The translations under genes were made by a program, and so were the position numbers. A stretch of 64,000 bases of DNA from Eledone cirrhosa (lineage: Eukaryota): assembly GCA_964016885.1 (NCBI GenBank), contig OZ024746.1, forward strand, positions 58,218,001 to 58,282,000. The letters are read 5' to 3'. The first letter of the stretch is position 1. Every line of letters begins with the position of its first letter. The notes beneath the pieces were generated by a model. The model saw nothing but the letters and a program-made list of their open reading frames with translations, searched no databases and had not been told where the DNA came from. Of the stretch, positions 1,763 to 60,980 are shown one piece after another.

Positions 1763-1930
1763 AATTGTTTCTACTTTTGGTACAAGGCCAGCAATCATCC
1801 CAGTGTATTACTGGTACTTTATTTTAACGACCCCGTAAGGATGAAAGGCAAAGTTAAACTCGGTGGGATTTGAACTCAGACCATAATGGGTCGCAAAACA
1901 TTGCGTCAGACTCTCTACCGATACTGCCAA
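1763..1930 (-). mobile_element. SINE family A, flanked by (AAT)n on both sides
   Basis: Family A sequence; (AAT)n at 1751-1765 and 1929-1937. Confidence 0.85.
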
Positions 1931-1937
1931 TAATAAT

Positions 1938-4900
1938 GATTTCTTTATTAACCACAAGTGTTTACATAAAGTAGACATTAAGGACAGTACAGTACAGGAC
2001 TGCCGTTAGGTAACGATGGTCTACCCTATCGAAGGCTTTCGACTGATCTAAATTGATCAAAGACCCACCCGAGCCAGGTTCCCTAGCTACCCTCTCTACG
2101 ATGTATCGCATGAGGTGGAGGTTGTCGTGGATGGATCTGTCGGGAATGGCGCATGTCTGTGTCTCTCCCACCAGACCACCAACGACAAGCGCCAACCTCT
2201 TTGCTAGCACCTTGGCCAAAATCTTGATCTCTGTGTTTAGCAGTCCATCCCTCGATCCGGCCCGCCACTGCCCCTGAACAATTGAGCGAAGTGTATCTGC
2301 AAAGCTTCACACATTTGCCCGGGATCGAGTAGCATGCGCACGTCGTGGTCCACCAAAGACCGGATCGTGGCTTTGTTGCCACGAAGCGCCTCTGCCACTC
2401 GGGCACATTGAACGGCTTTCGTCCCCTCGTGTCTGAGAGCACGCACCCTAGCTCTGACAACGCAGCCTTCGTGGTTTGCATTGAAGAATTGGTCAAGGGC
2501 CAATTTCGCCGCAAATACGTCGGTCGCGATGCCTTTGCTAAGCGCCTCGTCTAATTTTCTAACTAATACTCCCTCTGCTCTATTTTTCTCTATTACTAAA
2601 GGCTTACTAATCCTAATGGACTCTATTCTAATTGCTCTTTTAAGAGCAAACCACCACTTGTTGTTGACGATGGCCCCCGTCAACGTCCGCTTAAGTAGCT
2701 CGCTAATCCGGTTTCTGTAGGCCTTGAGCGCTGGTAAGGATGCGTTTAGCTTCCAGTAGCCGGGTCCTCGTCTATGAATCCTATCTAAGTCAAGCACACA
2801 GATCACGAATTTGTGGTCCGTGTAGCTGACTATCTTGAATTGTGGACAGCCTATGCTAGACCTATCTATTTCCCTAAAAAATACTCTATCTAGATATGAT
2901 CTGGATGACCCTATGCGATTTGTCCATATCCACATTGGTACATTCGGGAAATCCAATCGGTACCTATCAGTCATTTCAAAACGCCACCTCTATCCGCTGA
3001 TCCCACACAATCCCAGCGTGCATCTAAGATCCCGTTCCAGTCGCCCACTAACACTAAAGAGCGGGACGTTCCAAGAAAGGTCTCTAGCCGGAAGAAATCA
3101 GGCCGCCCTGCTCCTGTCGTGGCATGGACGGCCACTAGCCTGAAAGCTTGCCCGTCTCCGCTGGTCACGTCCAGCACCACCATCTTACCTTCTGGGTCCA
3201 GGAAGATGGCCCGTATGGCGAGATCCAAACCTCTCCGAAAAAGCTCAGCAACTCCTCCCCCGATCCAGGAAAGCTGGGAGATGCTTACACATCGTAGCCG
3301 CCGAAAATTGCTGCGAAGACCCGTGCTTCGGAGATTCTGGTCTCGCTGATGGCCACTACATCTATGTTTAGTGACCTGAGGTCGTTGAGCAGGTGGCCCT
3401 GCTTCCATGACGACCGCAAGCCACGCGCATTTATGCTGCCTATTCTGAGTGAGGTCATGTTGAAATGGAGTGGAAAAGATGGGAAAGACCACTTACCTTA
3501 CTTCTCGTTGAGGAAGGATGGTTTCTCCATCCTTTTCACTGCTTGTGGCCTCCTCAGGAAGGATGTCCTTAGAAATCCTCCTGGAGAGTGTTTGTCGGAA
3601 GTCTCCGATGTCTTTGGGGAATTTTTGTTTTAGTGTCATGTACGTTTTCTGTGTGATGCGAGTGATTTGTATGTGTGGAGGTGGTGTGAACTTTTGGGTT
3701 GTTGTGTAGTCTTTTTCTGTGATGCTGGTATTGTGTTGGATGTAGTGTAATAATTGGTTGTTGTTCAAATGTAATGCTGTTTAGTGTGTATCGTTTTGGT
3801 TGTTTTGTTTTGTTTGCGTTTGTTGTGGATTTGTTTATGTTTCGCTTTTTGGTGACTTTTGTGGTGTTGGTGATGGTGGTGTTGGGGTTAATGATGGTGA
3901 TAGTGTTGGTGTTTGTATTGATGGGGTTGGTGATGCTGGTGTGGTTGGTGGCATATCTGTCCTAACTTTTTTGTTTGATAGTTTATTTGTTTCCCTCTGT
4001 ATTTTGTTTTTGGAGGGGGAGGGAAGAGAATTTTTTTCTTTTTTGGTTTCCTTTTTTTCTTTTTTCCTGACACCGTTTCCCACTCCTCGTCGTCACAATC
4101 TGTGTCCAGTTGTGATAGGCTGGGGAGTGGAAAATCCTCCCAAGGCGTTGGTTTGTGTTGTAGCGTGGTGGATGGTGTAGGCGCTGGTGCTAGTTCTGGC
4201 GCGTTGTGTGGTGGTGGTGTTGGTTTTGCTACTGTTGCTGGGGTTGTTGCTGTTACAGTTGCTTCTGTTGTTGCTGCTACAGTTGTTGCTGCCATCTCTG
4301 CTGCTGGTGGTGTTGATGGTTGAGTCTCTGGTGTGGGTAAGAGAGGTGGCCTCAACCTTTTAGCCTGAGGGCAGAAAGCCCTTAGGTGGGCTCCTTCACC
4401 ACAAACGACACACCTAGGCCTTCAGCCCTCGACGATTACGGTGAGGTGGCTGCCGTCAGTGAGGTCTATTACTTCTGGGATCTCCTCAATGCTTTTTTTG
4501 GTCCGCTTGTATCAGGAGCTCCATCCCTGATCCGGACAAGTTCTCCTGCTTTTCTTTCGCTATTTCGATTATCTTGGTGTTGGCTTCGATGCCGACGAGG
4601 ACGGCAGCTATTAGTCAGGGAATTTCGATGGCCGGTGGAACGTGGGCCACTACGAGTCTCTGGCCACAATAGCTTGGGACGAGTGTGAAGTCCTCACTTC
4701 TTAATGGGGCCATGGAGTGTACTCTAGCCTCCTGTGGTGTTTCAAAGAACATGTCCACGGTTCCATATTTTTGCCCACGTCTGATGTGGATTTTTTTTGC
4801 CCTCACATGTCCCAATGCTTTTTGGATTTGGGACTCGGATGCCCGTTCCACTCGACGCGATTTTATATTAATTGTTCGATAAGACACGGTGCATAAGCGC

Positions 4901-5660
4901 CGATGCTCCATTTTATTAGGTGTGTGAGGGGGGCTGAACCTGTACCCATCTTTCTTTACCATTTGTTTGGCTTCTTCTAATTCCTCCTGAGTTACATGAA
5001 ACGGCTTCGCACTGTTTTGCTACTCTGGCAAAACTCAGGGTGGTTTTCTTAATGTCATTGTTGCTGTTGTTGTTATCGTTATTTTTGTTATTATTAATTT
5101 TAGTTTCAGTTGTGGTGGTGGTGGCGTCAGTGGCGTTCGGTGTGGAAGAGTTCATTTTGGTTGAATTCATTTCGATATCACGAGTTCATTTATTTTTTTA
5201 TTTTGTTTCTGTTGTCGCGGTGGTGGTGGGGGTGGTTGTCGCGGTGATGGTGGGGGGTGGTTGTCGCGGTGGTGGTGGTGGCGGCTTTAACACCTGCAGT
5301 CATTGGTAATGGCGGGAAATGAATGTCTACCTGAGACAAATTTAAAATATTGCTACTGCTTAGTAGCAATATTTAGTAATATTTACAATGGTGGTGTCGG
5401 TGTGAGCTGTTAGTTTGTGAGGAAGGAGTGACTCTGAGTCATCCATGATTTTTCTAAAAAAAATTTTTGTTTGATAATTATAAAAGTTTAAATATTGGGC
5501 TCAAGGCCCCAATCTTTTTGGGTGTCCTTTTCAGATAACAATGTATGTGCACTTATATACAGTTAACTATAAAAATTTTCCATGAATGGCAATTTTAAAC
5601 AACTGAAAATAACAAACCTTTGCGGAGCTCACGATGATAAAATTTACTACGTCGGTCGCC
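1938..5660 (-). mobile_element. Tx1/L1-clade retrotransposon copy T0 (ORF1 type B), internally deleted
   Basis: 5' end matches T2/T3 (GGCGACCnACGTAGTAAAT); ORF1 remnant ~3493-5446; ORF2 APE and part of RT (DQSKAFDRVDH) joined to the last ~60 bp of 3' UTR; AATAAAGAAATC(ATT)n end. Confidence 0.9.
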
Positions 5661-6350: not shown

Positions 6351-6538
6351 GGGGCTGTGAATTGGCAGTATGGTTAGAGGGCCGGACGCCATGCTCTCCA
6401 GCATAGTTACGTTGTTTTACGGTCTTAAAATCCCGCCGAGGTTTACTTTGCCTTTCGTCCTTTCGAGGTCGATAAAATAAACCACCAGTAATTTACTGAT
6501 AAATTGCTGGCCTTGTGCCAAACGTAGAAACAATTATT
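6351..6538 (+). mobile_element. SINE family A
   Basis: Head TTGGCAGTATGGTTAGAGGG through tail AGAAACAATTATT. Confidence 0.8.
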
Positions 6539-6908
6539 TTACTTTACTATCAAGCTATAAAGTTAACAAAAATACCTACATAAAATTATGAAGGAACATG
6601 TTGAGATACATATAAACATTTTAAAACATACGTTAGTACTTCGCTAATGAATGTTGCTGTTTTCTTATGCTTGAAAATTAACTTAACAGACGTATTTATA
6701 TAAAATTATGTTAATATAAATATAAATATCTAAAATCAAATACTGTTGTATTATAGAACTAAGCGCGTTTTGAGGTTCAGTAGCTAATGCGTTAACTCTT
6801 CAAATCTACCCCAGTCACTTAACGGTGAACGTTTCTCTAACCGTATATTATAACTTGTATATAACTTATTCCCTATTTCATACATAGCCTATTTACTAAT
6901 CTGCTAGC

Positions 6909-7112
6909 CGGTAAAGTCGGACACCATGCTTTGCAGCATTGAGTTACGGCCCCTAACGGTCTGAATTCAAATCCCGCCAAGGTTAATTATGCCTTTCGTC
7001 CTTATGGGGACGATAAAATAAAGCACCATTAACGTACTGGAGTCGATTTAATCGACTTCCACACTCCACCCCTTCAAATTACTGGCCTTGTGACTATACT
7101 AGAAATCATTAT
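6909..7112 (+). mobile_element. SINE family A (longer variant)
   Basis: B box GAATTCAAATCC, GCCTTTCGTCC...GATAAAATAAAG, tail GGCCTTGTG...AGAAATCATTATT. Confidence 0.75.
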
Positions 7113-7414: not shown

Positions 7415-7418
<4 letters not shown>

Positions 7419-7604
7419 GTTTGTACTTTTGGCACAAGGCCAGCAAATACCCAGTGTATTACTGGTACTTTATTTTATCGACCCCGTAAGGATGAAAGGC
7501 AAAGTTAACCTTGGCGTTATTTGAACTCGGAATGGCAAAGGCCGTAACTCTATGCGTCAAAGCATGGCGTCTTACCCTCTACCGATACTGCCAATCCACC
7601 GCCC
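7415..7604 (-). mobile_element. SINE family A
   Basis: Full-length match to family A, between (TA)n tracts. Confidence 0.85.
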
Positions 7605-12808: not shown

Positions 12809-12810
<2 letters not shown>

Positions 12811-13072
12811 TTTCTTTATTAACCACAAGGGTTTACATAAAGTAGACATTAAGGACAGTGCAGAACAATGGAGGACGGTACAAATGGGCATTTCTGCGTG
12901 TAAAAAAAAAAAAAAACAGAGGATGTAACAAAAATAACAATGAAAATAACAATGAAAAATTCCCCAATAGGGGGGAGACTTCGGAGGGACATTTGTGGAG
13001 AAAGCCCAGTGAAAAGCCACAATGACCCTGACCACCAAGGCAAGTGCCCTCTCCCAGTTTTCCACCTTTAGT

Positions 13073-16000
13073 TTACAGATATATACTCAGAGTCGGCCCA
13101 TTCACTCGGGCCATTCTTGCTTCTCTCACCCATCTTTCAACAAAATGCTGGGAAGAGAGCACTTCCCTCTCTACTCTGATTTTCCTTTTCAAATGAAATT
13201 TGAAAAAGTCAATCAGAGCATCACCGAAGAGGTAAGTGCTCGTCTTCAGCCCTTTCAAACGTGTCCACCATACTATCTCTTTCGCCATGGCCACCAGACA
13301 GATAAAAACTGCCTGCCCTTCCCGGCTAAAGGAGGAGGGCGGGGCAATCCTCACGATGGCCTCAGATGATAGCTGGATCCGTCCTAAACGCGACAGCAGG
13401 TGTTCGACATAAACCCACAAGTCAGCAATTTTCGGACACTGGACGAGTGCGTGCAGGACGGTTTCGTCGCCCTGCGCGCATCTCGGACATGCCCGACTGA
13501 CGGCACCTCCATGCCTGTAGAGTTTATCCCGAACTGGCAAGGCTCCTCGGTAGCACTGCCAGGCCAGAGATTTCTGGAAGTTGTCCATAGGCCCTGGCCC
13601 GAAAGTTCTTCCGAAGAGATTGGCTAGTTGATTTTCGTCGACGCCTAGAGTTTCCCCAAGTACGTCGTCGCTCTTCCCCTCCACTAATCCTCTATAGAAC
13701 GCCGAGGTGGAGTTTCCACCGATCACATTGCCCGATTGGTCGAGGGCTGTGAGCGCCTGAAGACATTCCAGTCTCCAGGCGCTCCCTCTCGGTCTTCGCT
13801 TGACCCAGGACTGCAGCTCCGTCAAGGAAACGAGCTGGGGAAAAACGCGTCTAGCAAACGGCGACCACACGTGATCACCGTCGAGGAAGAGGTGGAGATG
13901 TCGTAGCCTGAGCGCGTGCCTGCGCATCATCAGCCACGGCATGCCCAGCCCCCCACGTAGCGGGTGTTGACAACAGATGGACCGCCTGACCATCGGAGCG
14001 CGTCCCTTCCACAAAAAGCGAAAGAGCAAACGCTCCAGCGCAGTCAGGCGAGGCTTAGGACAAGGTACGACGGTCAGGCGGTAGCAGATGACGGACGCGA
14101 TGTACGCGTTAGCCACCTCCGCTCGACCTTTCAGGGATAGCTTCCTCTCGGCCCATTTCTGGGTGAGAGAAGCCACCCTGCTCGTCACCTCGTCCCAGTT
14201 TTTGTCCGTCTGGAGGTCCGGACCGAACCAGACCCCTAGCAATTTAACCGGTCCGTCCGTCCAGCGTCCGACGACGCTGTTGGACGGCATGGACCTGCCT
14301 CTCCAGGTGCCGAGCTGCAGGCCCACTGACTTTTCCTGGTTGATCATTGCTCCTGTCACCGCTTCGTATTCTCTTAGTGTAGTGCCGATCGCCTCGATGT
14401 GTTTGGCGTTCGACACCACTACGGTGACATCGTCCGCATATGCTGACACGGATCTTCCGCATCCTAGTTCGCGCGGGACTCCCCTCAACGTCTCCAGTTT
14501 GTGCAGTAATGGCTCGAGAGTCAATACGTACAAGAGGGACGAGAGGGGACATCCTTGGCGGACCGAGCGCATGATGTTGAACGGTTCCGACAGGTGACCG
14601 TTCACTCTCACCACAGAGCAGATGTCGCTGTGCATGGCAGCGATCCAGCCTCTGAAGACGGGCCCAAAGCCAGCCGCCCTCAGGACTGCCGCTAGGTAAC
14701 GATGGTCGACCCTATCGAAAGCTTTCGACTGATCTAAATTGATCAAGGACCCACCCGTGCCAGGTTCCCTAGCTACCCTCTCTACGATGTATCGCATGAG
14801 GTGGAGGTTGTCGTGGATGGATCTGTCGGGAATGGCGCATGTCTGCGCCTCTCCCACCAGACCACCAACGACAAGCGCCAACCTCTTTGCTAGCACCTTG
14901 GCCAAAATCTTAAACTCTGTGTTTAGCAGAGTTATGGGCCGGAAATTGTCTATGTTATCCCCCTTGTTCGGATCCTTTCTCAGCAGTGCCACCGCTCCTC
15001 GGCTCACAGAACTGGGAATTCTCCCGTTCTGTTGCCAGTTGCAGTAGACGTCCGCCAAGAGGCCTCCGAACAAGTCTGGCATCTGTACGTAAAGTTCATA
15101 GGGCAGACCATCCAAACCAGGCGATTTACCCCTTGTGCAGCCAGTCATTGCCTCCCGTACTTCAGCGGCTGTTATCGGCTTTTCGCAACACCTCGCCTCA
15201 GTGGCCGAGAGCCGCGGCAGTCCGTCGAGGTAGACACTAAAGTCCATCCCTCTACCCGGCCCCCCGCTGCCCCCGAACAGCTGAGCGAAGTGTCGCTGAA
15301 AAGCTTCACACATTTGCCCGGGATCGAGTAGCATGCGCCCGTCGTGGTCCACCAAAGACCGGATCGTGGCATTGTTGCCACGACGCGCCTCCGCCACTCG
15401 GGCCCATTGAACGGCTTTCGTCCCCTCGTGTCTGAGAGCACGCACCCTAGCTCTGACAACGCAGCCTTCGTGCTTTGCATTGAAGAATTGGTCAAGGGCC
15501 AATTTCGCCGCAAGCACGTCGGTCGCAATGCCTTTGCTAAGCGCCTCGTCTAATTTTCTCACTAGTTCTCCCTCTGCTCTATTTTTCTCTATTGCTAAAG
15601 CCTTACTAAACCTAATCGATTCTATTCTAATCGCTCTTTTCAGAGCAAACCACCACTTGTTGTTGACGATGGCCCCCGTCAACGCCCGCTTAACTAGTTC
15701 GCTAATCCGGTCTCTGTAGGCCTTGCGCGCTGGTAAGGAGGCGTTTAGCTTCCAGTAGCCGGGTCCTCGTCTATGAAGCCTATCTAAGTCAAGCACACAG
15801 GTCACGAATTTGTGGTCCGTGTAGCTGACTATCTTGAATTGTGGACAGCCTATGCTAGACCTATCTATTTCCCTACAAAATACTCTATCTAGATATGATC
15901 TGGATGACCCTATGCGGTTTGTCCAAGTCCACATTGGCACATTCGGGAAATCCAATCGGTACCTGTCAGACAGTTCAAAACGCCTGAGCAGGTTGGTGAG

Positions 16001-16492
16001 GCTCTTGCACCCTCCACCCCTATCCGCTAATCCCACACAGTCCCAGCGTGCATCTAAGATCCCGTTCCAGTCGCCCACTAACACTAAAGAGCGGGACGTT
16101 CCAAGAAAGGTCTCCAGACGCCGGAAGAAATCAGGCCGCCCTGCTCCTGTCGGGACATAGACGGCCACTAGCCTGAAAGCTTGCCCGTCTCCGCTGGTCA
16201 CGTCCAGCACCACCAGCTTACCCTCTGGGTCCAGGAAGATGGCCCGTATGGCGAGATCCAAACCTCTCCGAAAAAGCACAGCAACTCCTCCACCCGATCC
16301 AGGACGGCTGGGAGATGCGTACACATCGTAGCCGCCGAAGATCGGTGCGAAGGCCCGTGCTTCGGAGATTCTGGTCTCGCTGATGGCCACTACATCTATG
16401 TTTAGTGACCTGAGGTCGTTGAGCAGGTGACCCTGCTTCCATGACGACCCCAAGCCACGCGCATTTATGCTGCCTATTCTGAGTGAGGTCAT
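13073..16492 (-). CDS. T1 ORF2: AP endonuclease, reverse transcriptase and C-terminal Cys-rich region (1139 aa)
   Basis: APE motifs SINARG, SET, GDWN, SYLDR, TDH; RT motifs KSPGLDG, FRPITLLN, DQSKAFDRVDH, RQGCPLS, YADD; C-terminal CPRC..ETVLHALVQC. Confidence 0.96.
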   Translation of the reverse strand: MTSLRIGSINARGLGSSWKQGHLLNDLRSLNIDVVAISETRISEARAFAPIFGGYDVYASPSRPGSGGGVAVLFRRGLDLAIRAIFLDPEGKLVVLDVTSGDGQAFRLVAVYVPTGAGRPDFFRRLETFLGTSRSLVLVGDWNGILDARWDCVGLADRGGGCKSLTNLLRRFELSDRYRLDFPNVPMWTWTNRIGSSRSYLDRVFCREIDRSSIGCPQFKIVSYTDHKFVTCVLDLDRLHRRGPGYWKLNASLPARKAYRDRISELVKRALTGAIVNNKWWFALKRAIRIESIRFSKALAIEKNRAEGELVRKLDEALSKGIATDVLAAKLALDQFFNAKHEGCVVRARVRALRHEGTKAVQWARVAEARRGNNATIRSLVDHDGRMLLDPGQMCEAFQRHFAQLFGGSGGPGRGMDFSVYLDGLPRLSATEARCCEKPITAAEVREAMTGCTRGKSPGLDGLPYELYVQMPDLFGGLLADVYCNWQQNGRIPSSVSRGAVALLRKDPNKGDNIDNFRPITLLNTEFKILAKVLAKRLALVVGGLVGEAQTCAIPDRSIHDNLHLMRYIVERVAREPGTGGSLINLDQSKAFDRVDHRYLAAVLRAAGFGPVFRGWIAAMHSDICSVVRVNGHLSEPFNIMRSVRQGCPLSSLLYVLTLEPLLHKLETLRGVPRELGCGRSVSAYADDVTVVVSNAKHIEAIGTTLREYEAVTGAMINQEKSVGLQLGTWRGRSMPSNSVVGRWTDGPVKLLGVWFGPDLQTDKNWDEVTSRVASLTQKWAERKLSLKGRAEVANAYIASVICYRLTVVPCPKPRLTALERLLFRFLWKGRAPMVRRSICCQHPLRGGLGMPWLMMRRHALRLRHLHLFLDGDHVWSPFARRVFPQLVSLTELQSWVKRRPRGSAWRLECLQALTALDQSGNVIGGNSTSAFYRGLVEGKSDDVLGETLGVDENQLANLFGRTFGPGPMDNFQKSLAWQCYRGALPVRDKLYRHGGAVSRACPRCAQGDETVLHALVQCPKIADLWVYVEHLLSRLGRIQLSSEAIVRIAPPSSFSREGQAVFICLVAMAKEIVWWTRLKGLKTSTYLFGDALIDFFKFHLKRKIRVEREVLSSQHFVERWVREARMARVNGPTLSIYL

Positions 16493-16527
16493 GTTTAAAA
16501 TAGAGTGGAAAAGATGGGAAAGACCAC

Positions 16528-18621
16528 TTACCGTACTTTTGGTAGAGGAGGGATGGTTTTTACATCCCTTTTCACTTGATCGTCTGGTGAAGGGACCGTT
16601 GAATCGTCCCTTCGGCTGGTCGTTGGCTCTTCTAAGAGAATGTCTGAGTATACTCTTCGATTGATGGTTCCTCCTAGGTCCCTGAAATCACCAACTGCGT
16701 TGGGGAATTTCGTTTTAATATTTGTGTATTGTTTCTGTGCTATTTTTAGCAGTCTTATGTTAGTTGGCGTTTTGATTGGTGCTGGTATTATGTAGTCCTG
16801 TTGTGAAATGTCTGTGTGTTCAATTATGTAAGTCATTAGTTTCTTGTTGTGTGTATTTATTGCCGTGCATTTGTTTTTCTGGGGGTGGGGTGTGGTTCTG
16901 CTATTTTCTTGTCGTTGTTGCTGGGTGTGTGTGTTTTGTTGTTGTGTTTGCGATGTTGGTGCTTGTGGTGGTGGTGTTGAAGGTGTTGTTGGCGGTGGGG
17001 TTGTCGCCGGTGGTGATGGTGGTGCTGGTGTGGGTGGTGATGGTGTTGGTGGTGTTGCTGCTGTGGGTCTCTTTGCAGTAGACTTTACCCTTTTCTCATT
17101 TCTTTCCTCCCTTTTCAAAGGCGACGATGCGCTGCTTCTGCGTTTGTGCCTTCTTGCGACCTTTTGCCATCCCTCTCCCACCTCACACTCCATGTCTGAT
17201 TCTGTAAGGTCGGGGAGGGGTACCAGCTCCACTCTTTCACTTGTTGTTGTTGGTGATGTTTGCACTGGAGTCTCTGTTGCAGCTGCATTTGGTATTGCTG
17301 TTGTTGTTGTTAATATTTCCACTGCTGCTGCTGTCTTTGATTTCCGTGGAGTGGGTATGGGTGCCACGGACCTATCGTTCCTGGTTGCCGCTTGTCCTGT
17401 TGCTGGTAGCCGTGGAGCCGGATTCGGAAGGAGGGGGGTTTTCTCCTTTCTCAGGGTCTTCTCGTTGCAGAAGGCCCTGAGGTGAGTCTTCGATCCACAG
17501 CGAAAGCATTTCGGGCGTTTGCCCTCAACACTTATGGGCAGTTGAGTGCCGTTATCGAAGTCTATCACATCCGGGATAGCTTCGATGCACTCATGGTTGG
17601 TTTGGATTAGCATCTCAATGGAGGAGCCGACCCAATCTTCTCTTACTTTTTTCTGTACTTGCAGTACAGTTGTTTTGTCCTCGATTCCGACGAGGACAGA
17701 CGCGGCCAGCCAAGAAGGGGTCATTCCGGGGGGGACGTGGGTCAGTTTGACCCTCACAATTTTTTGCCCGCAGTAGGAGGGCACCAACACCATTTCCTCG
17801 CTCCTTAGGGTCACTACTGATTGGGCCTTTGCCTCCTGGGGTGTGGCAAAAAGTACGTCTACGGTGGCGTATTTTTTGCCTCGGGTGATGTGCGTTTTCC
17901 TCTGCCACACAGACCCCAAGGCTTTTTGTATTTGGGCCTCTGTGGCTCTTTCCACCCTACGGGATTTTGTACTTACTGTACGGTACGTGACCGTACAGTG
18001 CTCTTGGGTTTCGAAAAAATTTTTCGCTGCCTTGCAGATTGCTCGGTGTCCGTTCTTTGTCACCATCTTCTTCGCTTCCTCTAATTCCTCATTTGTTATG
18101 AGGATTGTTTCCAAGTTTTTCGCAATACCTGCAAATGAGATTGGTTTTTCTCTGCTGTTGTTGTTGTCGTCAGAGCTGCTGGTACTTTTGTTGCTGCAGG
18201 TACTACGACTACTGCCTCCGCCGCTGTTGCTGTGGTTGTTGTTGGTGTTGCTGCTGCTAATGCTGTTGTTGTTTATGCTGCTGGTGATGCTGTTGCGGCT
18301 GCTACTGTTGTTTTCATTGTCACTGTTGCTGTTGTTATTACGGCTGCTACTGCTATTATTCCTGACGTCAGACGAATGAACTGGGTTTTCGTATTTCCCG
18401 CACACCTGTTTCGTCGCTGTCGTCGTCGTCGTGGAGAAACCTTGCACGCTTTGCACGAGACTTTTCTTTTCTTTCGTCACTTGCGAAAGAGAAGGGAGGG
18501 AGAGAGACACATTTAAAGAAGGGAGGGAGAGAGACAATCTTCTCTCTGCTGTAGTGATGATTGAGGAAGAAGAAGACGGAATGAGTGGGAGTGACGTATG
18601 AAATTTATTTTTGGTAGCCAT
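16528..18621 (-). CDS. T1 ORF1: nucleic-acid-binding protein with one CCHC zinc knuckle (697 aa)
   Basis: CFRCGSKTHLRAFC = CX2CX4HX4C; Asn/Ser- and Pro/Thr/Gln-rich linkers; homologous to ORF1 of the other copies. Confidence 0.9.
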   Translation of the reverse strand: MATKNKFHTSLPLIPSSSSSIITTAERRLSLSLPSLNVSLSLPSLSQVTKEKKSLVQSVQGFSTTTTTATKQVCGKYENPVHSSDVRNNSSSSRNNNSNSDNENNSSSRNSITSSINNNSISSSNTNNNHSNSGGGSSRSTCSNKSTSSSDDNNNSREKPISFAGIAKNLETILITNEELEEAKKMVTKNGHRAICKAAKNFFETQEHCTVTYRTVSTKSRRVERATEAQIQKALGSVWQRKTHITRGKKYATVDVLFATPQEAKAQSVVTLRSEEMVLVPSYCGQKIVRVKLTHVPPGMTPSWLAASVLVGIEDKTTVLQVQKKVREDWVGSSIEMLIQTNHECIEAIPDVIDFDNGTQLPISVEGKRPKCFRCGSKTHLRAFCNEKTLRKEKTPLLPNPAPRLPATGQAATRNDRSVAPIPTPRKSKTAAAVEILTTTTAIPNAAATETPVQTSPTTTSERVELVPLPDLTESDMECEVGEGWQKVARRHKRRSSASSPLKREERNEKRVKSTAKRPTAATPPTPSPPTPAPPSPPATTPPPTTPSTPPPQAPTSQTQQQNTHTQQQRQENSRTTPHPQKNKCTAINTHNKKLMTYIIEHTDISQQDYIIPAPIKTPTNIRLLKIAQKQYTNIKTKFPNAVGDFRDLGGTINRRVYSDILLEEPTTSRRDDSTVPSPDDQVKRDVKTIPPLPKVR

Positions 18622-18858
18622 GTTTTTTTGTTTAAAATGAAATTTTGGCTACAAAACCCCAATAACTGGTTATTTAACCCCGAAGGGCCAAATAACGGAC
18701 AGAAAGACCCCTCTCACGAGGAGGAGGGTGTCTTTATCAACAATTTGGTTCAAGTTTTAAACAATTTACAATTGTTTTAACGGTTAAAAATTACTATACC
18801 TTACAGAGCCGAGCCTCCGTCAACCATGGCATTCAATAATAATAATAATAATAATAAT

Positions 18859-24663: not shown

Positions 24664-24718
<55 letters not shown>

Positions 24719-44909: not shown

Positions 44910-45094
44910 GGGTGGGGGATTGGCAGTATCAGTAGAGGGTCAGACGCCATGCTTTCCAGCATAGTTACGTCCCTTTACGATCTGAGTTCAAATCCCGCCG
45001 AGGTTGACTTTGCCTTTCATCCTTACGGGGTCGATAAAATAAAGTACCAGTAATGTACTGGGTAATTGCTGGCCTTGTGCCTAAAGTAGAAACA
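44910..45094 (+). mobile_element. SINE family A with 18-bp target-site duplication
   Basis: ATTATGACAATATAACCC at 44892-44909 and 45095-45112. Confidence 0.9.
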
Positions 45095-45316
45095 ATTATG
45101 ACAATATAACCCACCCCAAAATATAGCACAATTTATTAGATATACTGAGAAAACAAACATGTAAAATCTCAAACTTATTCTTATCTATAGTTTTCAAACC
45201 AGGTTCAGTACTAACTCTTGAATATTCCTCATCTCTGCCGGTTTGAATTTTGCCTTCCTCCATTGGTACTACATATCTCTCACCTATGTCTCCTGCAGTG
45301 TCAGTTATACCTCCAT

Positions 45317-45497
45317 TGGCAGGATCGGTAGAGGGTCGGACGCCATGGTTTGCAGCCAAGAGTTACGGCCCTTTATGGTCTGAGTTCAAATCCCGCTGAG
45401 GATAATGTTGCCTTTCATCCTTACGATGTCGATAAAATAAAGTACCAGTAATGCACCGGTTTAATTGCCGGCCTTGTCCCCAAAGTAGAAATAATTA
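45317..45497 (+). mobile_element. SINE family A
   Basis: TTGGCAGGATCGGTAGAG head to AGAAATAATTATT tail. Confidence 0.85.
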
Positions 45498-45511
45498 TTT
45501 TCACGATTTTA

Positions 45512-45685
45512 TGGGCGATGTATTGGCAGTATCGGTAAAGATTCGGACGGTATGCTTTGCAGCATAGAGTCACGGAGTTGAGATCCCACCGTGGTTAAGT
45601 TTGCATCCTTACGTGGTCGATAAAATAAAATACCAGTAATGCACTGGCATAATTGCTGGCCTGTGCCAAAAGTAGAGACAATTAT
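45512..45685 (+). mobile_element. SINE family A (with internal deletion)
   Basis: GGGCGATGTATTGGCAGTATCGG head to AGAGACAATTATT tail. Confidence 0.8.
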
Positions 45686-46519: not shown

Positions 46520-46520
46520 A

Positions 46521-49500
46521 TTGGGATGGACACACGCGTATAACTTGCTGAGTAAGTTCTGTTTAAATTTCTATAGAAATTCTTGTCTGTTAACTTTAAT
46601 TTTTGTACTATTTTGTAGAGGGACTGCCAGGTCAAACTTTGATCTGGTCAGTCTCTCAAAATATTCTACGCCTTTAGGCGAAATAGTTAAACAAATGTTG
46701 AAAAGTTAATATTTTTTTAAATGGCTGAAGCTTCTTCACCAAAATTCAAAGGAGGAAAGGGGAAGATAAACTTACAGCTTCCCCCTGCCACTGTCACAGT
46801 AGCAGAGGTCAAGAAGAAAGGTCAGCCAGAGGAAGAATTTTCTCCAACTGTCAACCGACAACTTGACGTTTCCATGGCAACAACCCAAAGAACAAGCGGC
46901 ACCAGCAACAGCAACAACAACAACAATGCGACGGACGAAAACAACACCAATAACAATAACAACAACAACAAGACCAATAACCGTGACAACAACAACAATG
47001 ATAACAACAACACCACCAACGACAACAACAACACAAACAAAAAAAATGTCTCCTTCGCCGAGACGACAAGGAAAACCCTCGACTATCTGCCAGTAGATAT
47101 AACCAAAGCGAAGGAGCTACTGGCAGATGCCAAAAAATATATAGTGTACGGGGAAAATGGTTCATTCACAATCCATTCCCCGACGGAACTAAAAAGCCAG
47201 AGACTCCTAAACACTGTCATGTTTAGGACAATCTCGAATAAAAGTAAAAAACCAGCTCAACCATCACAGAGTGAGATAGAGCTGGTTTTAAAAGACGTCA
47301 TGAAGGACATCACCTTCATTCAGAAGGATAGACTCTACGGGAGTCTATCCATTCTCATGAAGGACAGGGACACAGCAGTGAAACTGTCCATCAAACCAAT
47401 CACATCCACCGCATACACCTTCTACCCTACGTACATGGGTAGAAGAACACAAAAAATAAAAATCCACACCATCCTGCCGATTATGGACATATGGTGGGTT
47501 TTGACAGGTTTCCTGGATCTGGAGGATGACATGCTGGTGTCCATGGGAAAGGCATCGGGTGACGCGTTCAGTGGAACGAGCCTCGAAATTGTAGTTCAAA
47601 TGAGGCCCGAAAGGATCGCCCCGATCCCTGAACGCGTCATACTGCATGATCTAACCTTCATCAACATTACCGTTGAGGGTAGGCGGCCCTCGTGTTACCT
47701 CTGTCCCCAACTTAATAAGAAAACCCCAATCCTGCCTACACCACCAACAACTGCACAACCAACACAATCACCACAACTACCACTACAAAAACAACCACCA
47801 CAGCTCAAACCAAAACAAAACAATGTCCAACCCATCCTCTCCACTCAAAAAACAAAAACAATTTCCAAAACACCCGCACCGCAAACACAACCCGAAAATA
47901 TTGCCCTCCCCATCCAACGCGGAAGATGACCCTAGTTCGTCGTCAGGCGAGGAGGAGCACTTCCACACAATCAAAAGAAAAAAAAGAAAACACGCCTCAG
48001 ACACACAAATGAAAACAACCCCTCCCCAAAACATAACACTGACACCAACACAAAAGAGCTCACAACAACAGCAAACAAAAAACACCACACAAAAACAAAA
48101 ACATGCAAACACATACATAAACACAAGAAACAAAAAACTGTTAAACATTGTGTACAACAACAATCTAGTAAAAACACAAGGGTCTAACTTCACCCAGGCA
48201 GGGGATTTCCCCCACCTCAAAATGATTAAGGCCCCACAGGACACCTCTAAATCTTTAAAAAACAATTTCAAGGAGGACGTGCGTCCCCCCTGCGTCGGGC
48301 CCATTAACCGCGTCCTCCTAAAAATCTACCCCACCCACTCCCCAAACACCCACACAACTCCAAACTCCCCAACCACACAACACACTGATGCCCCTACACT
48401 TCCACAAACCACCACCCCACCCAACAACCCATCCCCCACCCTAATGGAAATTGTGCAGCCCGATACCCGGGACGCAGAGAGGTAAGTGCCTTTTCTCTTC
48501 ACCACCAACATGGCTATGTTAAGAGTAGGCTGTTTAAATGCGCGTGGCCTGGGCTCAACTTGGAAGCAAGCAATGCTTCTAAATGACCTCAGGTCACAAC
48601 GTATAGATGTGATGGTTATTTGCGAGGCCCGGATCAGCAGCGTGCGACAGCTGGCCCCCACCTTTGATGACTTTGAGATGCACGCATCTCTCTGTCAGCC
48701 CGGAGGTGGGGGTGGAGTTGTCGTTCTGCTGCAAAAACATCTGGGTCTCGCAACACAGATGGTACATTTGGACCCGGAGGGTCGACTAGTGGTTCTGGAC
48801 CTTGGCAGTGGTAAAGGCGGAGCGTTTAGATTGGTAGCCGCCTACGGCCCTTTCGGGTCAATGCGGCCGGACTTCTTCCATCGTTGGAAACTTTTCTAGG
48901 GACGTCCCGCTCCTTGCTATTAGTGGGGGACTGGAATGGTATCCTAAATGCACGCTGGGACTACGTAGGGGCCTGTCCCGATAGAAAGGGGTGTAATAGC
49001 CTCAAAGGGTTAATCGGTCTATTTGACCTGGCCGATAGATATTGACTTGATTTTCCGACTGCGCCAACCTGGACTTGGGCAAATCGTAGCGGATCATCTA
49101 GGTCGTACCTAGATAGGTTATTAGTTAGAATTAAGGATAAGGACTTTTTAAGTTGTGGAAAAATGCGCATGGTTGGCTATTCAGACCACAAGTTAGTGAC
49201 CTGCATGATCAACCTTGACACAACTCAACCGGTTACTGGAAGCTCAACTTGTCCTTACCGGAAAGTAAGGCTTACAGGGTCCGGATTAGCACTTTAGTTA
49301 AGGAGCGGTTGACGGGCGCCATCGTCAACAGCAGGTGGTAAGGATCTCTCAAAAGAGAGATTAGAGTAGTCTCTATAGAATTTAGTAAGGAGTTAGCCTC
49401 AAATAGAAATAGGAAGGAAAGGGAGTTGGTAGATAGTGGAGAAGAGGCAATTAGAAGCGGCGACGTGGCCAGAGTGCTAGCGTCGAGAACGGCCCTGGGC

Positions 49501-51553
49501 CAGTTCTTCAACGCGAAACACGAAGGCTGCATCGTCCGAAGCAAAATACGTGCTCTGGGAAACGAGGGGACCAAAGCTGTTAGCTGCGCCCGCGTGACAG
49601 AAGCCAAAAGAGGGAGCAGATCCACTATCCGATCTTTGCGAGACCAGGTTGGACGGGTGATCCTTGAACCTAAGCAGATGTGCGAGGCTTTTCAAAAGCA
49701 CTTTGCCGGATTGTTCAGAAGGGGCCGGGGGCCGGTTGGGGATGTGGACTTCGGTCCATACCTCGACGGCCTGCCGCGTGTCTCGGACAGGGAGGCGAAG
49801 TCCTGCGAGGAGCCGATTTCAGCCGCTGAGATAGAGGACGTGCTGAGCCAATGCGGCAAACGCAAATCCCCAGGTCTCGATGGTCTTCCATACGAACTAT
49901 ATCTAGCTATGCCGGACTTGTTCCCCGATCTCCTCGAGGCGGTCTACTGCAACTGGCAACAGAACGGGAGAATTCCCTGTGCTGTGACCAAGGGCGTAGT
50001 CACGCTAGTGAGGAAGGACGATAACAAGGGGGACGATATAAATAATTTCAGGCCCATAGCTCTGCTAAATACAGAGTTACAGATTTTGGCCAAGGTGCTA
50101 GCAAAGAGGTTGGCGCTTGTCGTGGGCAACCTGGTGGCAGATGCGCAGACATGTGCTATCCCGTACAGGTCCATCCACGACAACCTCCACCTCACGCGAT
50201 ACATCATAGAGAGGGTTGGGAACGAACCCGGCTTTGGTGGGGCCCTGATCAACTTGGATCAATCTAAGGCATTCGATAGGGTTGACCATGGTTACCTGGA
50301 TGCGGTGTTAGCGGCGGCAGGCTTCGGACCCGTTTTCAGGGGCTGGATCAATGCCATGCACAGCAGCCGCATCTGCTCTAGGGTCAAGGTGAACGGCTAC
50401 CTCTCGGAGCCGTTCGAAATCGCGCGGTCCATCCGACAGGGGTGCCCTCTCTCCTCCCTTCTGTATGTAATGACTCTAGAGCCACTGCTGCGGAAGTTGG
50501 AGCTGTTGCAGGGCATCCTGTTGGAACCGGGATTGCGGAAAGCGGTGTCAGCCTACGCCGATGACGTAACAGTAATGGTGTCGACGGCCTCGGAAATCGG
50601 GGCGATCGGCACCTTACTGGAGGAGTACGAAAGGTTTACAGGGGCTAAGCTGAACCGGGACAAGTCGATCGGTCTGCAACTCGGCACGTGGAGGGGCAGA
50701 TCGATGCCCTCCGATGGCAAACTGGCCAACCTGTTCGGTAGGACATTCAGCCCGGGACCCATGGGTAACTTCCAGAGGTCCCTGGCCTGGCAATGCTACA
50801 GAAGGGCTCTGCCCGTTCGAGAAAGGCTCTACAGACACGGGCGCCCGGGTAGGGACCCCTCGAAAAAGATCTGTCCCAGATGCGTGTGCGACGAGGAAAC
50901 CGTTGCACACGCATTGGTACACTGCTCGAGCATTGCCGATCTGTGGGGCTATGTCGAACAACTGCTGTCAATGGTGGGACCGATCCGGTTGACCACCAAG
51001 TCTATTGTAACGATCAAGCCGCCCCCCCTCTTCAAAAACGAAGGAGAGGCGGTGTTTCTGTGCGTAATAGCCATGGCGAAAGAGGTTGTATGGTGGACGC
51101 GTCTGTAAGGACTGAGGTCAGACACCTTTCTCTCTGGCCAACAACTGGTCCGTTCTTCCGATATCATTTCGGAAGAAGGATCAGGATGGAGAGAGAGGTG
51201 CTGCACTCCAGCCGTTTTTATGAAAGATGGATGAAAGTGGCGAGAATGGCCCGTGTGAATGGGCCTTCACTCTACATCAGACTCTAGGTGAGGAAGATGA
51301 CAGACCAAGGGAGCACCCCTTCTCTGTGCTCCTGAGGAGAAGGGTTGCACGCTTTTTTTTCGGGGGTGTGTGCGACCCCCCAAGGCGCCTCCTCTCTATT
51401 GAGGACTTTGTTATAAATTTTATTTTTTGTTATATTTTATTTTATTTTTATATATTGTTATTGCCTCCTCCTTATTGAGGACGCCTTGTTTTGTAAACTC
51501 CCCCCATTGTACTTGTCCCACTTTTGATGCCCTGGTGGCAAATAAAAGAAACA
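46521..51553 (+). mobile_element. Divergent Tx1 copy T5 (ORF1 type D) flanked by (TATC)n
   Basis: ORF1 46721-48485 (frameshifted); ORF2 ~48510-51287 with APE/RT motifs, stops and an internal deletion at ~50715; AATAAA at 51541; (TATC)n at ~46460-46516 and from 51554. Confidence 0.92.
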
Positions 51554-51812: not shown

Positions 51813-51997
51813 AATTGTTTCTACTTTTAGCACAAGGCCAGCAATTCACCAGTACATTACTGGTACTTTATTTTATAGACCCCGTAAGGATGAAAGGCAA
51901 AGTTAACCTCGGCGGGATTTGAACTCAGAATGGCAAGGGCAGTAACTCTATGCCTTAAAGCATGGCGTCCAACTCTCTACCGATACTGCCAATTCAC
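51813..51997 (-). mobile_element. SINE family A
   Basis: Near full-length match. Confidence 0.85.
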
Positions 51998-53325: not shown

Positions 53326-53326
<1 letters not shown>

Positions 53327-53759
53327 TCTTCGGCCAATCCCTCATCAACTTCTTCAAGTTTCACCTGGAAAGGAAGCTGAGGGTGGAGAGAGAAGCCCCC
53401 CCCCCAATACATTTGCTAAAAGGTGGATGAATGTGGCGAGAATAGCTCGTGTGAATGGGTCTACTCTGACCATGCGCCTATAGGCGAGGTAACTTGAAGA
53501 GAGGGGTGCTCTCCCTGGGTGCCCTAGAAGCGCAGGGTGGTTCAGGATTGGTGGGGTATCCGAGTCACCCCAGGGTCCTCCACCCCCTATAAGGGAATTT
53601 ATTTTATTATATTTATGCATAGTTTATTTTATATTTTTATATCTTCATTAAATTAGTCTTGCCATTGTGCACTTTTACTCGACCTTATTGTAAACCCCCA
53701 CAGTCCCTGTCTTTGTATTGTCTCCTACATGTTGACCCTTGTGGCTAATAAATGAAATC
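53326..53759 (+). mobile_element. 5'-truncated Tx1 stub T6
   Basis: Follows (ATT)10; LFGQSLINFFKFHLERKLRVERE...RVNGSTLTMRL matches ORF2 C-terminus; ends CCCTTGTGGCTAATAAATGAAATC-ATT. Confidence 0.88.
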
Positions 53760-53762: not shown

Positions 53763-53941
53763 GGTGGATTGGCAGTATCGGTAGAGGGTCGGACGCCATG
53801 CTTTAACGCATAGAGTTACGGCTCTTTATGATCTGAGCTCAAATCCCGCCGAGGTTAACTTTGCCTTTCATCCTTATGTCGTCGATAAAATAAACTAATG
53901 CACTGGGTAATTTGCTGGCCTTGTGCCTAAAGTAGAAACAA
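53763..53941 (+). mobile_element. SINE family A directly after the T6 tail
   Basis: Full match, tail (ATT)4. Confidence 0.88.
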
Positions 53942-54568: not shown

Positions 54569-54754
54569 ATTGTTTCTACTTTAGGCACAAGGCCAGCAAT
54601 TATCCAGTTCATTACTGGTACTTTATTTTATCGAGCCCGTATGGATGAAAAGCAAAGTCAACCTCGGCGGGATTTGAACTCAGATCGTAAAGGGACGTAA
54701 CTATGCAGGAAAGCATGCGTCCGACCCTAAACCGATACTGCCAATCCACCGCCC
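54569..54754 (-). mobile_element. SINE family A with target-site duplication
   Basis: AGCTATTAAT at 54561-54570 and 54758-54767. Confidence 0.88.
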
Positions 54755-57529: not shown

Positions 57530-57877
57530 AACTTACATAAAAAGGTTAAGTACCCGTGGCAATCCGAATTGAAACTACAAGGGAACGTACAAAGGGGACT
57601 TTATTGAAGCCTTCGCTCGTTCCTTTGTGAGGTCCAATTCACCTCCACATGCTTGCGCAGGCGCAAATGGGAAGGATGTTGAACAGCTAACAACCTACAC
57701 CAAAACACAACAAATCTAGCCTAGGTAGGTACACCCCCCTCCACCACCACCACCAACCAACCAATCAGGATACAGAGACACAGGGTTCATGACTGCCACC
57801 AAGTTGTAGCTTACCGCTAGTCGCATGTCTAGTGGCGGCCGAACAAAACACTGTGGTAGTGGATATTATATATATAT

Positions 57878-58031
57878 AGAGGGTCGGACGCCATGTTTGC
57901 AGCATAGAGTTACGGCCCTTTGCGGTCTGAGTTCAAATCCCACCGAGGTTGGCTTTGCCTTTCATCCTTGAAATGAAATACCAGTAATGCACTGGGGTAA
58001 TAGATGGCCTTGTGCCAAAAGTAGAAACAAT
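57878..58031 (+). mobile_element. SINE family A (truncated)
   Basis: B box GAGTTCAAATCC and family tail. Confidence 0.8.
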
Positions 58032-58096: not shown

Positions 58097-58179
58097 GTGC
58101 CCTTCACCCCTATCTCCTCGTGAGTTATTGGGCTGCGTAATAATATACCTAATATTATTTAAAGAAATTTCTTTGACGT

Positions 58180-58315
58180 ATAGAGTTACGGCCCTTGCCA
58201 TTCTGAGTTCAAATCCCGCCGAGGTTAACTTTGCCTTTCATCCTTACGAGTTCGATAAAATAAAGTACCAGTAATATACTGAGTAATTACTGGTCTTGTG
58301 CCTAACGTAGAAACA
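58180..58315 (+). mobile_element. SINE family A (5'-truncated) with probable TSD
   Basis: ATTATTTAAAG.AAT at 58154-58168 and 58316-58330. Confidence 0.8.
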
Positions 58316-58618: not shown

Positions 58619-58832
58619 TTAACCCTTTAGCATTTAAACCGGCCATATCCGGCTAGAATTTCCTCACCTATTTCCGTTCAAACTGGCTGTAAACAGTCAC
58701 TCATATTGATGTTAAAGTATTGTTCTCAAAATCTCAAAATCTCGTAGATTTGATATTATGTGAGGTAATTATGTGATATAAAGTGTTACTGTGAAAATAC
58801 AATGGTATATATAGAGTAATGTAAATGCTAAA
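58619..58832. mobile_element. Possible non-autonomous piggyBac-like MITE remnant
   Basis: Starts TTAACCCTTTAGCATTT; partial inverted end AAATGCTAAA at 58823-58832. Confidence 0.35.
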
Positions 58833-58859
58833 AAAACAATTATTGCATCATGTTTCCAA

Positions 58860-60980
58860 ATGACAACGCAGGGGAAGCTGACTGACACCGGGGTGCCTTA
58901 TCTGTTGACGGTATACTCACATGTGGTTTGATTCTTAAATTCCCATTACCAAATACTTTTCAATCGGGCTTTGTTCTGGTATGACTGGTTGTACCACTTC
59001 ATTTGTCATATTGGTTGTTGTTGTTTATTTCTAACTTTGGTCTTGCTCTATAATTATTTTAAATTGTTTGGTTCCCGTTTGCTTTGATTTAGCTTTCAAT
59101 CAGTATTTAGATCCTGTGAGGCATTATACTGCCTGATATTCGATATTATAGGTTTACCTATTTATAATTATTCACTTCGAATGTTATATAATATTTCGTA
59201 TAATAATGAATGGATATTTATGTTTTAGTAAAATTATTTCTTCTCTTGTAATTACATCACCATAAATGGTACCAACGTTTAGCGATAGAGAGTATACAAT
59301 GTTATGGTTTGAAATTCTGGTAATGGTGTTACTCTGTGCTTTTATATCTGTTGTGATAGTGGTGTTTTTATAATCACCATTATGTACAGAAAAGGTAATT
59401 TGTATTGTCTCCTTTATACATTCTAGGGTTTGAGGTGAATTCTTCAGGCTTCTGTTGAAATGTTCTAAAAATCTACATATCCTCTCCATATCACAAAGAA
59501 ATTATATATATATCTTCTAAATTGTCTATTATTATTTTCTTTTACGATTTGGTATAATTGTGTACTTCTAAAGATCCTATTAGCAGAGTTTAATGTGTTT
59601 GAGCAAACCTGGTTCCCTTGAATGTACCTCTGATTTGTCTGCATGAGTTCACATTGAAAATAAATATAGAGATACCTGCTTCTAATATGTAGCCAATAGG
59701 GAATCGATGAAAATCATTTCTCTGTGTTTTACGATCTAATATTTCACCGGTGATTTTCTTAAGTAATGCGGAATATTGGTATAGAGACTTAACGCATCAA
59801 ATCTAAATAATAGAGAATTTGGTTTCCTGGTTTTAGTTAGACATGACAACAAATCAATATAATACCGAATGAATCTCGGTAAGGAAGTACGCAAGGTTTT
59901 CACTATAATGTCCACGAATTTATTTATCCGAACATGGCGAAAAAAGTATGATAGGTTTAAGTTTTAGATGATTTATGCTAAGAAAGTTTACAAATACATT
60001 CATTTGTTATTTTTGCGTTTCCGATTTCCTTTGAATTTATGTATTTTTGTTAGACGATAAGGATTGGTCGGATTTAGTTCAAAATTGATTTTTACTCAAT
60101 TTTGTTTGTGGCAAACGATTTTGATGTTTGAAACTAGATGATTGGGTTGCATAATAATTGTTTCTATTTTTGGCACAAGGCCAGCAATTACCCAGTACAT
60201 TACTGGTACTTTATTTTATCGACCCCGTAAGGATGAAAGGCAAAGTTAACCTCGGCGGGATTTGAACTCAGATCATAAAGAGACGTAACTCTATGCTTCA
60301 AAGTATTGTGTCCGACTCTCTACCGATACTTCCAATAATAGTGATCTATATTTGCAGGTATTTCTGAATAATAGTTCGTGTCCTTCAGCTAAATCCCTAT
60401 AATATTCAACATCCATTTTGAAAATGGCCCCAAGGTTTTTCTACCTGGTTCATAACTATTTTTTCATAGTTTTGGAGACGGTTGAGAGGAAACGTCTCCA
60501 ATTCGATAACATTTTATCTGACATACGTATTCTGTTCGGGTGAGAATTTGGAAGGGCTAGCAATATATTGATCCAAAGGATTATCACTTAGTTTAGATGG
60601 GGTAAATTCTGAATTGTTGCTCAGCACAGATTCATCCTCCTCCTTGTCTTTATCAAATAAAAGCTCAATCCACGCTAATTCTCGATAGAACTTTCAGATA
60701 TCTTTCTCTCGTTCTTGATGCTTGACTGTTTATTTCGTCAAGAATTTTATTCCTTTTATTCAAGTTAAAACTTCATCATTATCTAGGTTTCGTTTTGGTA
60801 AATTATATTATATTTGGGTTCAAATGTTTTTGAATGTTTTCTTCCTGATATTAAAATTCCGGTGTTTGTTGTCCCAACACGAAAAGATAAATTCATATTT
60901 GTTTAGTATTCATGTTTGCTTCTTCAATTGTCTCAGTGTTTTTGTTTGCTTATGTTTCATTATCTACTCTGCCTTAGTTG
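58860..60980 (-). pseudogene. Heavily decayed Penelope-like RT/GIY-YIG coding region interrupted by a SINE
   Basis: Minus-strand motifs in expected order: YRLTKIHK (~60050), FDALSLYTNIP (~59790), HNIVYSL (ORF 59184-59489), RQQIRHP (~58900); boundaries approximate. Confidence 0.6.
60156..60335 (-). mobile_element. SINE family A
   Basis: Near full-length match with AATAAT on both sides. Confidence 0.85.

Follow-up and report, generated by a model that had tools for sequence, protein, structure and literature searches.

Short interspersed elements (SINEs) driven by Tx1-type long interspersed elements (LINEs) have been proposed in crocodilians, where SINEU-1/2/3 were given to Tx1-Mar (Kojima 2015, PMC4494074; papers with a PMC number are cited here from parts of their text). 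Shared 3' tails involving L1-clade LINEs are known from plants and algae, namely ZmSINE2/3 with LINE1-1_ZM and SINEX-3_CR with L1-1_CR (Ohshima 2012, PMC3472496; Ohshima 2013, PMC3747384), and three of the 58 SINE/LINE pairs tabulated in the latter paper have L1-clade tails, all of them plant or algal and none Tx1. Here we describe a 64-kb stretch of the Eledone cirrhosa genome (contig OZ024746.1, positions 58,218,001 to 58,282,000; hereafter the window), whose content was read from self-comparison and translated searches. It consists of microsatellite-rich eukaryotic DNA with one SINE family and LINEs of two clades, Tx1-type and R4/Dong-like. On the evidence of a common terminal motif, a compensated stem, ATT at the insertion sites, the target-site duplications (TSDs) and an open Tx1 open reading frame (ORF) 2, the SINE is likely to be mobilised by Tx1, sharing a 3' hairpin with an ATT-targeting Tx1 family whose ORF2 protein would copy it.

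Like the window SINE, the crocodilian SINEU elements have been assigned to a target-specific Tx1 partner with which they share their target, and they form tandem insertions (PMC4494074). They have U1/U2 heads, a poly(A) tail and a Mariner target, and according to the same excerpts no LINE sharing the 3' end of SINEU-1 was found, whereas the window SINE has a tRNA-like head, an ATT target and a terminal hairpin in common with a LINE. ZmSINE2/3 and SINEX-3_CR join a tRNA SINE to an L1-clade LINE through a common 3' end, as the window pair probably does, and the monocot pair also has a compensated hairpin with a conserved loop; however, the plant and algal pairs share 50-80 nt and end in poly(A) or poly(T), whereas the window pair involves an animal Tx1, about 25 nt and an ATT end. 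Tx1 elements with APE endonuclease and reverse transcriptase (RT) that lie in simple repeats have been described as Kibi in (TC)n, Koshi in (TTC)n and crocodilian elements in (TTCC)n/(TTTC)n (PMC4494074). The window copies T1 to T6 are of the same kind but, unlike these families, target (ATT)n and (ATCT)n, and T1 and T5 form a clade of their own with an Argonauta protein.

Bivalve HCD SINEs and squid Ceph-SINEs are mollusc tRNA SINEs with swapped LINE-derived tails (PMC11481361, PMC4824008, PMC5786205), a type to which the window SINE probably belongs, and the partners reported for mollusc SINEs comprise links to CR1, CR1-Zenon, L2, Nimb and RTE (PMC4758252, PMC4824008, PMC11481361, PMC5786205). 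The available parts of PMC11481361 and PMC5786205 make no mention of Tx1, and those of the octopus papers PMC8967140, PMC9115989 and PMC12988792 were not found to name any partner. Within the full-text literature searched, which takes in neither Repbase or Dfam nor subscription articles such as that of 1994 on octopus SINEs, no tRNA-type animal SINE with a Tx1 3' hairpin and no SINE/Tx1 partnership by shared tail was found. The SINE family itself may already carry a name. The octopus tRNA SINEs OK, OR1 and OR2 were reportedly described by Ohshima and Okada in 1994; their library entries measure 465, 1092 and 484 nt against 190-220 nt for the window SINE, a comparison by length only, and the latter may be one of these families or a relative.

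The SINE family

The window contains 16 SINE copies (Table 1), 13 of a short form A and three of a long form B, and the family is short (<700 nt), interspersed, non-coding and high-copy (16 copies per 64 kb). Its head contains an A-box-like TGGCAGTATC, a B-box-like GTTCAAATCC and GGCGG/CCGCC complementarity, recognised by eye against box consensus sequences, and no tRNA match was obtained in the SINE with ARAGORN or Rfam. The family may be of tRNA type with a tRNA-like promoter head and a putative parent tRNA. The body is by eye unlike the BivaMeta and BivaMD alignments, and a Meta domain as SINE body was dropped after comparison with published alignments. The copies are 78-96% identical to their majority sequence and carry the marks of retroposition, with clean TSDs at three of 15 loci, several 5' truncations, often at the SINE's own ATTGG, and a simple-repeat tail.

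In sequencing run X1, which may be the window's own source, 168,119 contigs match one SINE copy. Behind the SINE, the largest of the loose ends listed, with 2,782 contigs, reads (ATT)n in consensus (agreement 0.42), and tail-to-head SINE joints are common (the two closest to the head have 73 and 27 contigs), which indicates tandem SINE copies. Six loose ends of this run were inspected, 388 others lying outside the inspection. Run X1 alone was informative, the SINE giving 30 records in X4 and one each in X22 and X20. Scans of sequence collections gave no match from the host, one chance bacterial contig and eight chance Pelagibacter matches, and no Tx1 relative was found in viral contigs.

The Tx1-type LINEs

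Copies of Tx1 type, T0 to T6, and a 30-nt 3' stub were recognised in the window. T1 has the domain set of the Tx1 clade, with a CCHC knuckle in ORF1 and an APE endonuclease (PF03372), an RT (PF00078) and a C-terminal zinc domain, zf-RVT (PF13966), in ORF2 according to Pfam. The bit score of its ORF2 is 326 against Xenopus Tx1 ORF2 (YTX2_XENLA) and about 179 against human L1 ORF2. A protein of Argonauta hians is its nearest named relative (69%, covering 59% of the query), with Xenopus Tx1 ORF2 among the named matches that follow. In an RT tree of 25 chosen rows, with no L1 row among them, T1, T5 and the Argonauta protein form a clade (support 100/99), and T1 and T5 share an unresolved group with YTX2. 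Insertion is target-specific, ATT standing on both sides of T0-T4 and T6 and (ATCT)n around T5 and the stub. T5, listed in an earlier note on this DNA beside the ATT-tailed T1 and T4, does carry the terminal motif, but both of its flanks are (ATCT)n, not ATT.

A shared 3' end

The exact pattern CCTTGTG-N7..10-AGAAA occurs 14 times in the window against a mean of 0.04 after shuffling, always at element ends, namely ten SINE ends and four LINE ends (T1 12811, T2 18861, T3 24720, T4 35887); two repeat families account for all of these matches, so they do not count as 14 events independent of one another. A scan allowing one mismatch adds further SINE copies and T0, T5 and T6, and the motif, in some cases with mismatches, lies at the extreme 3' end of all eight Tx1 ends and all 16 SINE copies. 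The two blocks that the earlier note saw in common between SINE A and the ends of T1 and T4 read as it gave them, while T5 and T6, which it placed in the same set, enter with a mismatch only, T5 having CCTGGTG and T6 TGAAA. Most of the LINE spacer consists of AATAAA, a hexamer resembling a poly(A) signal that is missing from the SINE.

A more fitting description of what the ends share is a predicted hairpin with a CUUGU-type loop and a 4-bp stem, followed by GAAA. The arms around CTTGT are AACC/GGTT in T1-T3, GGCC/GGCC in T4, TGCC/GGCA in T5, GACC/GGCT in T6, and TGGC/GCCA or GCCT in the SINE, pair 2 being G-C in the SINE versus C-G in all LINEs. In a 22-row alignment 81% of the 84 stem cells are paired, compared to 24-54% in slid controls, and three of the four pairs have changed on both sides. 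After reduction to five lineages (T1, T4, T5, T6 and the SINE) 14 of the 15 variable cells pair, a value equalled by 3 of 120 arm permutations; because the structure was drawn after the sequences had been seen and the copies are related, these shuffle counts are not probabilities. The stub has kept four stem pairs despite its altered loop. The SINE/Tx1 pair therefore shows the compensatory changes of a stem-loop, although the hairpin is weak and was picked after inspection, and a stem that stays paired across four diverged Tx1 lineages, the stub and the SINE despite different letters suggests selection on pairing. As T5, which targets (ATCT)n, and the stub both carry it, the hairpin-GAAA motif is not tied to the ATT target. 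The closing-pair probability is 0.74-0.96 in the ends of T1-T5 and at most 0.10 in those of T6 and T0, and when ends of 75-80 nt were folded, only two of seven, those of T1 and T4, had the loop-closing hairpin as their minimum structure.

Models trained on six LINE ends and on 15 SINE tails were used reciprocally, their E-values being rough. With structure, the LINE-trained model placed a SINE tail first among its ten matches other than LINE ends (E 0.31), four of the ten being SINE tails; with sequence only, two of 14 matches were SINE tails and they ranked lower. After the 16 SINEs, the SINE-trained model placed the T5 end first (E 0.033), followed by the T2/T3 5' untranslated region (UTR; 0.48), with T4 fifth (1.3).

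Target sites and junctions

ATT stands two bases after the AGAAA block in 15 of the 16 SINEs, the exception being fused to another SINE, against 2.1-3.4% of positions in the background. The SINE at 44910 has a perfect 18-nt TSD (44892-44909 / 45095-45112), and those at 54571 and 58169 have TSDs of 14 nt (54754-54767 / 54557-54570) and 15 nt (58154-58168 / 58316-58330), each with one mismatch. All three clean TSDs lie in unique DNA and start with ATTA at the same offset, the starts noted before at 44892, 54570 and 58154 proving exact. At the other 12 of 15 SINE loci the TSD is decayed, embedded in a microsatellite or absent. As 19 of 210 mismatched flank pairs score at least 11, the TSD score alone is not decisive and the position at both junctions was used. 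TSDs are 7-18 nt long with a mode of 13-15 in the L1 clade, and mostly 13 nt or less with a mode of 10-12 in RTE (PMC6007223). Compared to these values, taken from part of that paper, the SINE TSDs are nearer the L1-clade range (n = 3). The RTE type, with TSDs mostly of 13 nt or less and a T-stretch near -10, does not describe the SINE (n = 3), the T-stretch being absent at all three clean sites. An ATT at the start of a TSD can arise from annealing of primer and template and does not, therefore, name the endonuclease. The polarity is the same for SINE and Tx1, which are followed by ATT, whereas R4/Dong-like ends are followed by (AAT)n. Ten of the 11 (ATT)4+ tracts in the window touch one of the elements described here.

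Two SINEs stand behind a Tx1 tail in the same orientation, as noted earlier, at 1931 (T0) and 53763 (T6), with 6 and 3 nt of ATT between the elements, which is shorter than a TSD. These joints and that of the SINE dimer could reflect either an insertion into the tail, with microhomology at the SINE's ATTGG, or a template jump that leads from SINE RNA to the 3' end of the next RNA. The dimer at 86-456 is joined without ATT, which places the end of the element at AGAAACC and fits a template jump.

The probable mobilising partner

Among the LINEs of the window, Tx1 is favoured because of the tail, the ATT polarity and the TSD length; the tails compared were those of the two LINE clades present in the window, Tx1 and R4-like. 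Several observations weigh against this assignment, beside the limit already set on the shuffle counts. The SINE majority 25-mer is identical to the Tx1 terminal 25-mers at only 13-15 of 25 positions at the anchored end (reciprocal-model E 0.03-0.3, rough), 123 of 121,326 background positions reach 14/25, and internal LINE positions score equally or higher, the best (18/25) being in the T2/T3 5' UTR. The closing-pair probability exceeds 0.5 in only six of 15 folded SINE copies, the stem ends in a T-T mismatch in four of the 15, and no significant folding z-score was obtained for the hairpin. T5 has the motif but a different target, (ATCT)n, and long (ATT)n tracts hold most of the Tx1 copies, whereas each of the three clean SINE sites is unique DNA in which ATTA stands once. 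The ages are not matched either, since the SINE copies have diverged to 78-96% of their majority while T1 is open. The squid elements Sepioth-SINE1 and -2A, with an RTE 5'-UTR body, have a 4-bp stem, TGAC-CTTGT-GTCA, in the unassigned 3' part, some 30 nt away from the end as listed (supplement of PMC5786205, in part); with the same loop and a fully paired stem in these SINEs, the hairpin may not be private to Tx1. Finally, T5 and T4 are nearer in score to the SINE tail than T1 is, and the SINE-trained model misses the T1-T3 ends at E 10.

The earlier proposal that the SINE uses an ATT-targeting Tx1 ORF2 through a 3' motif is supported in part, a Tx1-clade partner being the best reading of the hairpin, the ATT polarity, the TSD length and the failure of the R4/Dong-like LINE. 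The ends ranked and missed by the SINE-trained model do not single out T1, and the need for the motif in mobilisation is putative. A Tx1 family akin to T1, though not necessarily T1 itself, is the likely partner.

It is unlikely that the partner belongs to a LINE clade not represented in the window (RTE, CR1, Hero or a Penelope-like clade) and that the likeness to Tx1 reflects chance, convergence on a common small hairpin or an old tail swap. The low plain identity of the tails and the like hairpin in RTE-bodied squid SINEs would agree with this, as would the recent activity of RTE, CR1 and Hero in Octopus vulgaris (PMC13282606, in part), which also speaks against Tx1, and the first base of the TSD in RTE systems follows the 3' microsatellite of the element itself (PMC6007223, in part), so that the ATT bias need not name the partner. 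Against such a partner stand the TSDs of 14-18 nt without an upstream T-stretch at all three clean copies and the agreement of terminal position, spacing and compensated stem with Tx1; moreover, none of the six inspected loose ends of run X1 marks a longer shared tail. A relaxed Tx1 mobilisation, through the AUU tail and the shared target and with the hairpin as a dispensable relic of tail capture, has a small chance of being correct. The stem is broken in many SINE copies, the crocodilian SINEU elements were given to Tx1 by target alone without a shared tail (PMC4494074), and mammalian L1 is relaxed (PMC3472496). However, breaks in single copies are expected after insertion, and the pairing kept with different letters across the Tx1 lineages, stub and SINE suggests that selection has acted on it.

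The R4/Dong-like LINE, in which RT, zinc knuckle and PD..D nuclease motif follow the established domain order of that group, sits in the same ATT/AAT tracts and could in principle mobilise the SINE from the same microsatellite. Among the LINE insertions of O. vulgaris, the most recently active are those of Dong-R4 (PMC13282606, in part), and the SINE at 6358 lies about 30 nt behind an R4 tail. Both R4 ends are nevertheless followed by (AAT)n, on the opposite strand to the SINE's ATT, and they are without the motif and unmatched by the SINE-trained model, which makes this disfavoured partner very improbable.

If Tx1 mobilises the SINE, Pol III would transcribe the SINE, and Tx1 ORF2 protein would bind the CUUGU hairpin and the following GAAA. 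Its APE domain would make a nick at ATT in the bottom strand, the ...AAT-3' end set free in this way would anneal to AUU of the RNA and prime reverse transcription, and a second nick 14-18 nt away would create the TSD. That copies often stop at an ATTGG of the SINE itself would be consistent with microhomology at the 5' junction. More tentatively, and with somewhat less than an even chance that all of it holds together, a 25-nt tail would allow site-specific Tx1 LINEs to drive a major octopod SINE, which would be the first animal SINE with a stringent 3' stem-loop common to the L1/Tx1 lineage; a single CUUGU hairpin would be recognised by all octopod Tx1 families, their endonucleases having diverged towards different microsatellites, and the junctions of a SINE behind Tx1 and of SINE with SINE would be template jumps in one Tx1 particle.

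SINEs make up 11.6% of the O. vulgaris assembly, and nearly all of the recently active families are unclassified (PMC13282606, in part). A Tx1 partner, if true, would explain the association of the SINE with (ATT)n, and would allow Ohshima's proposal of an ancestral need for a 3' structure in L1-clade LINEs, which rests on three plant or algal pairs among 58 (PMC3472496, PMC3747384), to be tested in an animal. For a reverse transcriptase with a site preference, a tail of 25-30 nt would be unusually small as a cis signal. As ORF1 and ORF2 of T1 are open, a direct assay is possible.

Table 1. SINE and LINE copies of the window, with strand and distinguishing features
Element	Position	Strand	Remarks
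SINE dimer	86..456	-	long-form B (241-456) joined to truncated A (86-240)
SINE B, 3' fragment	981..1072	+	
SINE A, truncated at own ATTGG	1766..1931	-	directly behind T0 3' end and ATTATT
SINE A	6358..6532	+	
SINE B	6908..7107	+	end AGAAATC-ATT as in T1; decayed 16-17-nt TSD starting ATT
SINE A	7418..7602	-	within ATT/(AT)n tract
SINE A, near-full-length reference copy	44910..45094	+	boxes, body, 3' hairpin 45070-45082, then AGAAACA
SINE A, two tandem copies	45315..45680	+	second flanked by 10-nt repeat starting ATT (45494, 45681)
SINE A	51816..51995	-	TSD looked for, none found
SINE A	53763..53940	+	directly behind T6 3' end and ATT; (ATT)4 after SINE
SINE A, full length	54571..54753	-	14-nt TSD starting ATT
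SINE A, truncated	57877..58029	+	within ATT/(AT)n tract
SINE A, 5'-truncated	58169..58315	+	15-nt TSD starting ATT
SINE A, truncated at ATTGG	60159..60336	-	tail is top SINE match of LINE-trained model
T0, internally deleted T2/T3-type Tx1	1938..5660	-	last 59 nt kept
T1, Tx1-clade LINE	12809..18834	-	open ORF1 and ORF2; 3' hairpin 12821-12833; (ATT)n both sides
T2, Tx1 copy	18859..24663	-	broken ORF2; 3' end same as T1, 5' part different
T3, Tx1 copy of T2 type	24718..30581	-	
T4, second Tx1 family	35885..41709	-	76-81% to T1-T3; ATT both sides; stem GGCC/GGCC
T5, third Tx1 family	46520..51552	+	in (ATCT)n; stem TGCC/GGCA; best non-SINE match of SINE-trained model
T6, 434-nt 5'-truncated Tx1	53326..53759	+	long (ATT)n tract before element
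Tx1-like 3' stub, 30 nt	61761..61790	-	in (ATCT)n; 4-bp stem retained, loop now TTTAT
R4/Dong-like LINE	32360..35851	+	RT, zinc knuckle, PD..D restriction-like endonuclease; ends in (AAT)n; second fragment 5686-6304

Other features of the elements

The T5 family and the stub (46459-51592, 61761-61850) target (ATCT)n yet are closely related to the ATT-targeting Tx1 families, and form with them a natural pair for the study of a change in endonuclease target. T0 retains the 5' 3.4 kb, one 249-nt piece of ORF2 and the final 59 nt of the element. T1 has ORF2 and 3' UTR in common with T2 and T3 (92-95%), but its 5' UTR and ORF1 are different and nearer to those of T4 (16577-18834 compared with 22542-24663 and 28462-30581); as read from the sequence, the 5' end of T1 is a putative 5'-module swap between Tx1 families.

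A segment resembling the SINE tail lies about 150 nt from the 5' end in the 5' UTR of T2 and T3 (24483-24518 and 30401-30436, minus strand), with the stem polarity of the SINE and then ATT. Its score was reached by 0-4 of 200 shuffles for two A copies and was not significant for B, in 30 tests, and it is possibly a captured SINE end.

Between 12746 and 41718, T1, T2, T3, a 5' fragment, the R4-like LINE and T4 stand end to end with ATT/AAT tracts between them. Tx1 and R4 occupy opposite strands in this 29-kb nest, which looks like the outgrowth of a single microsatellite. The 5' fragment (30654-32100, plus strand) is like a Tx1 5' UTR and ORF1 start, precedes the R4-like ORF, lies behind (AAT)n and not (ATT)n, and contains an internal 500-nt duplication (30848-31345 / 31516-32023). 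Three MITE-like pairs of inverted repeats were also seen, at 8279-8623, 42083-42560 and 61232-61544, with arms of 84-140 nt that are 72-96% alike.

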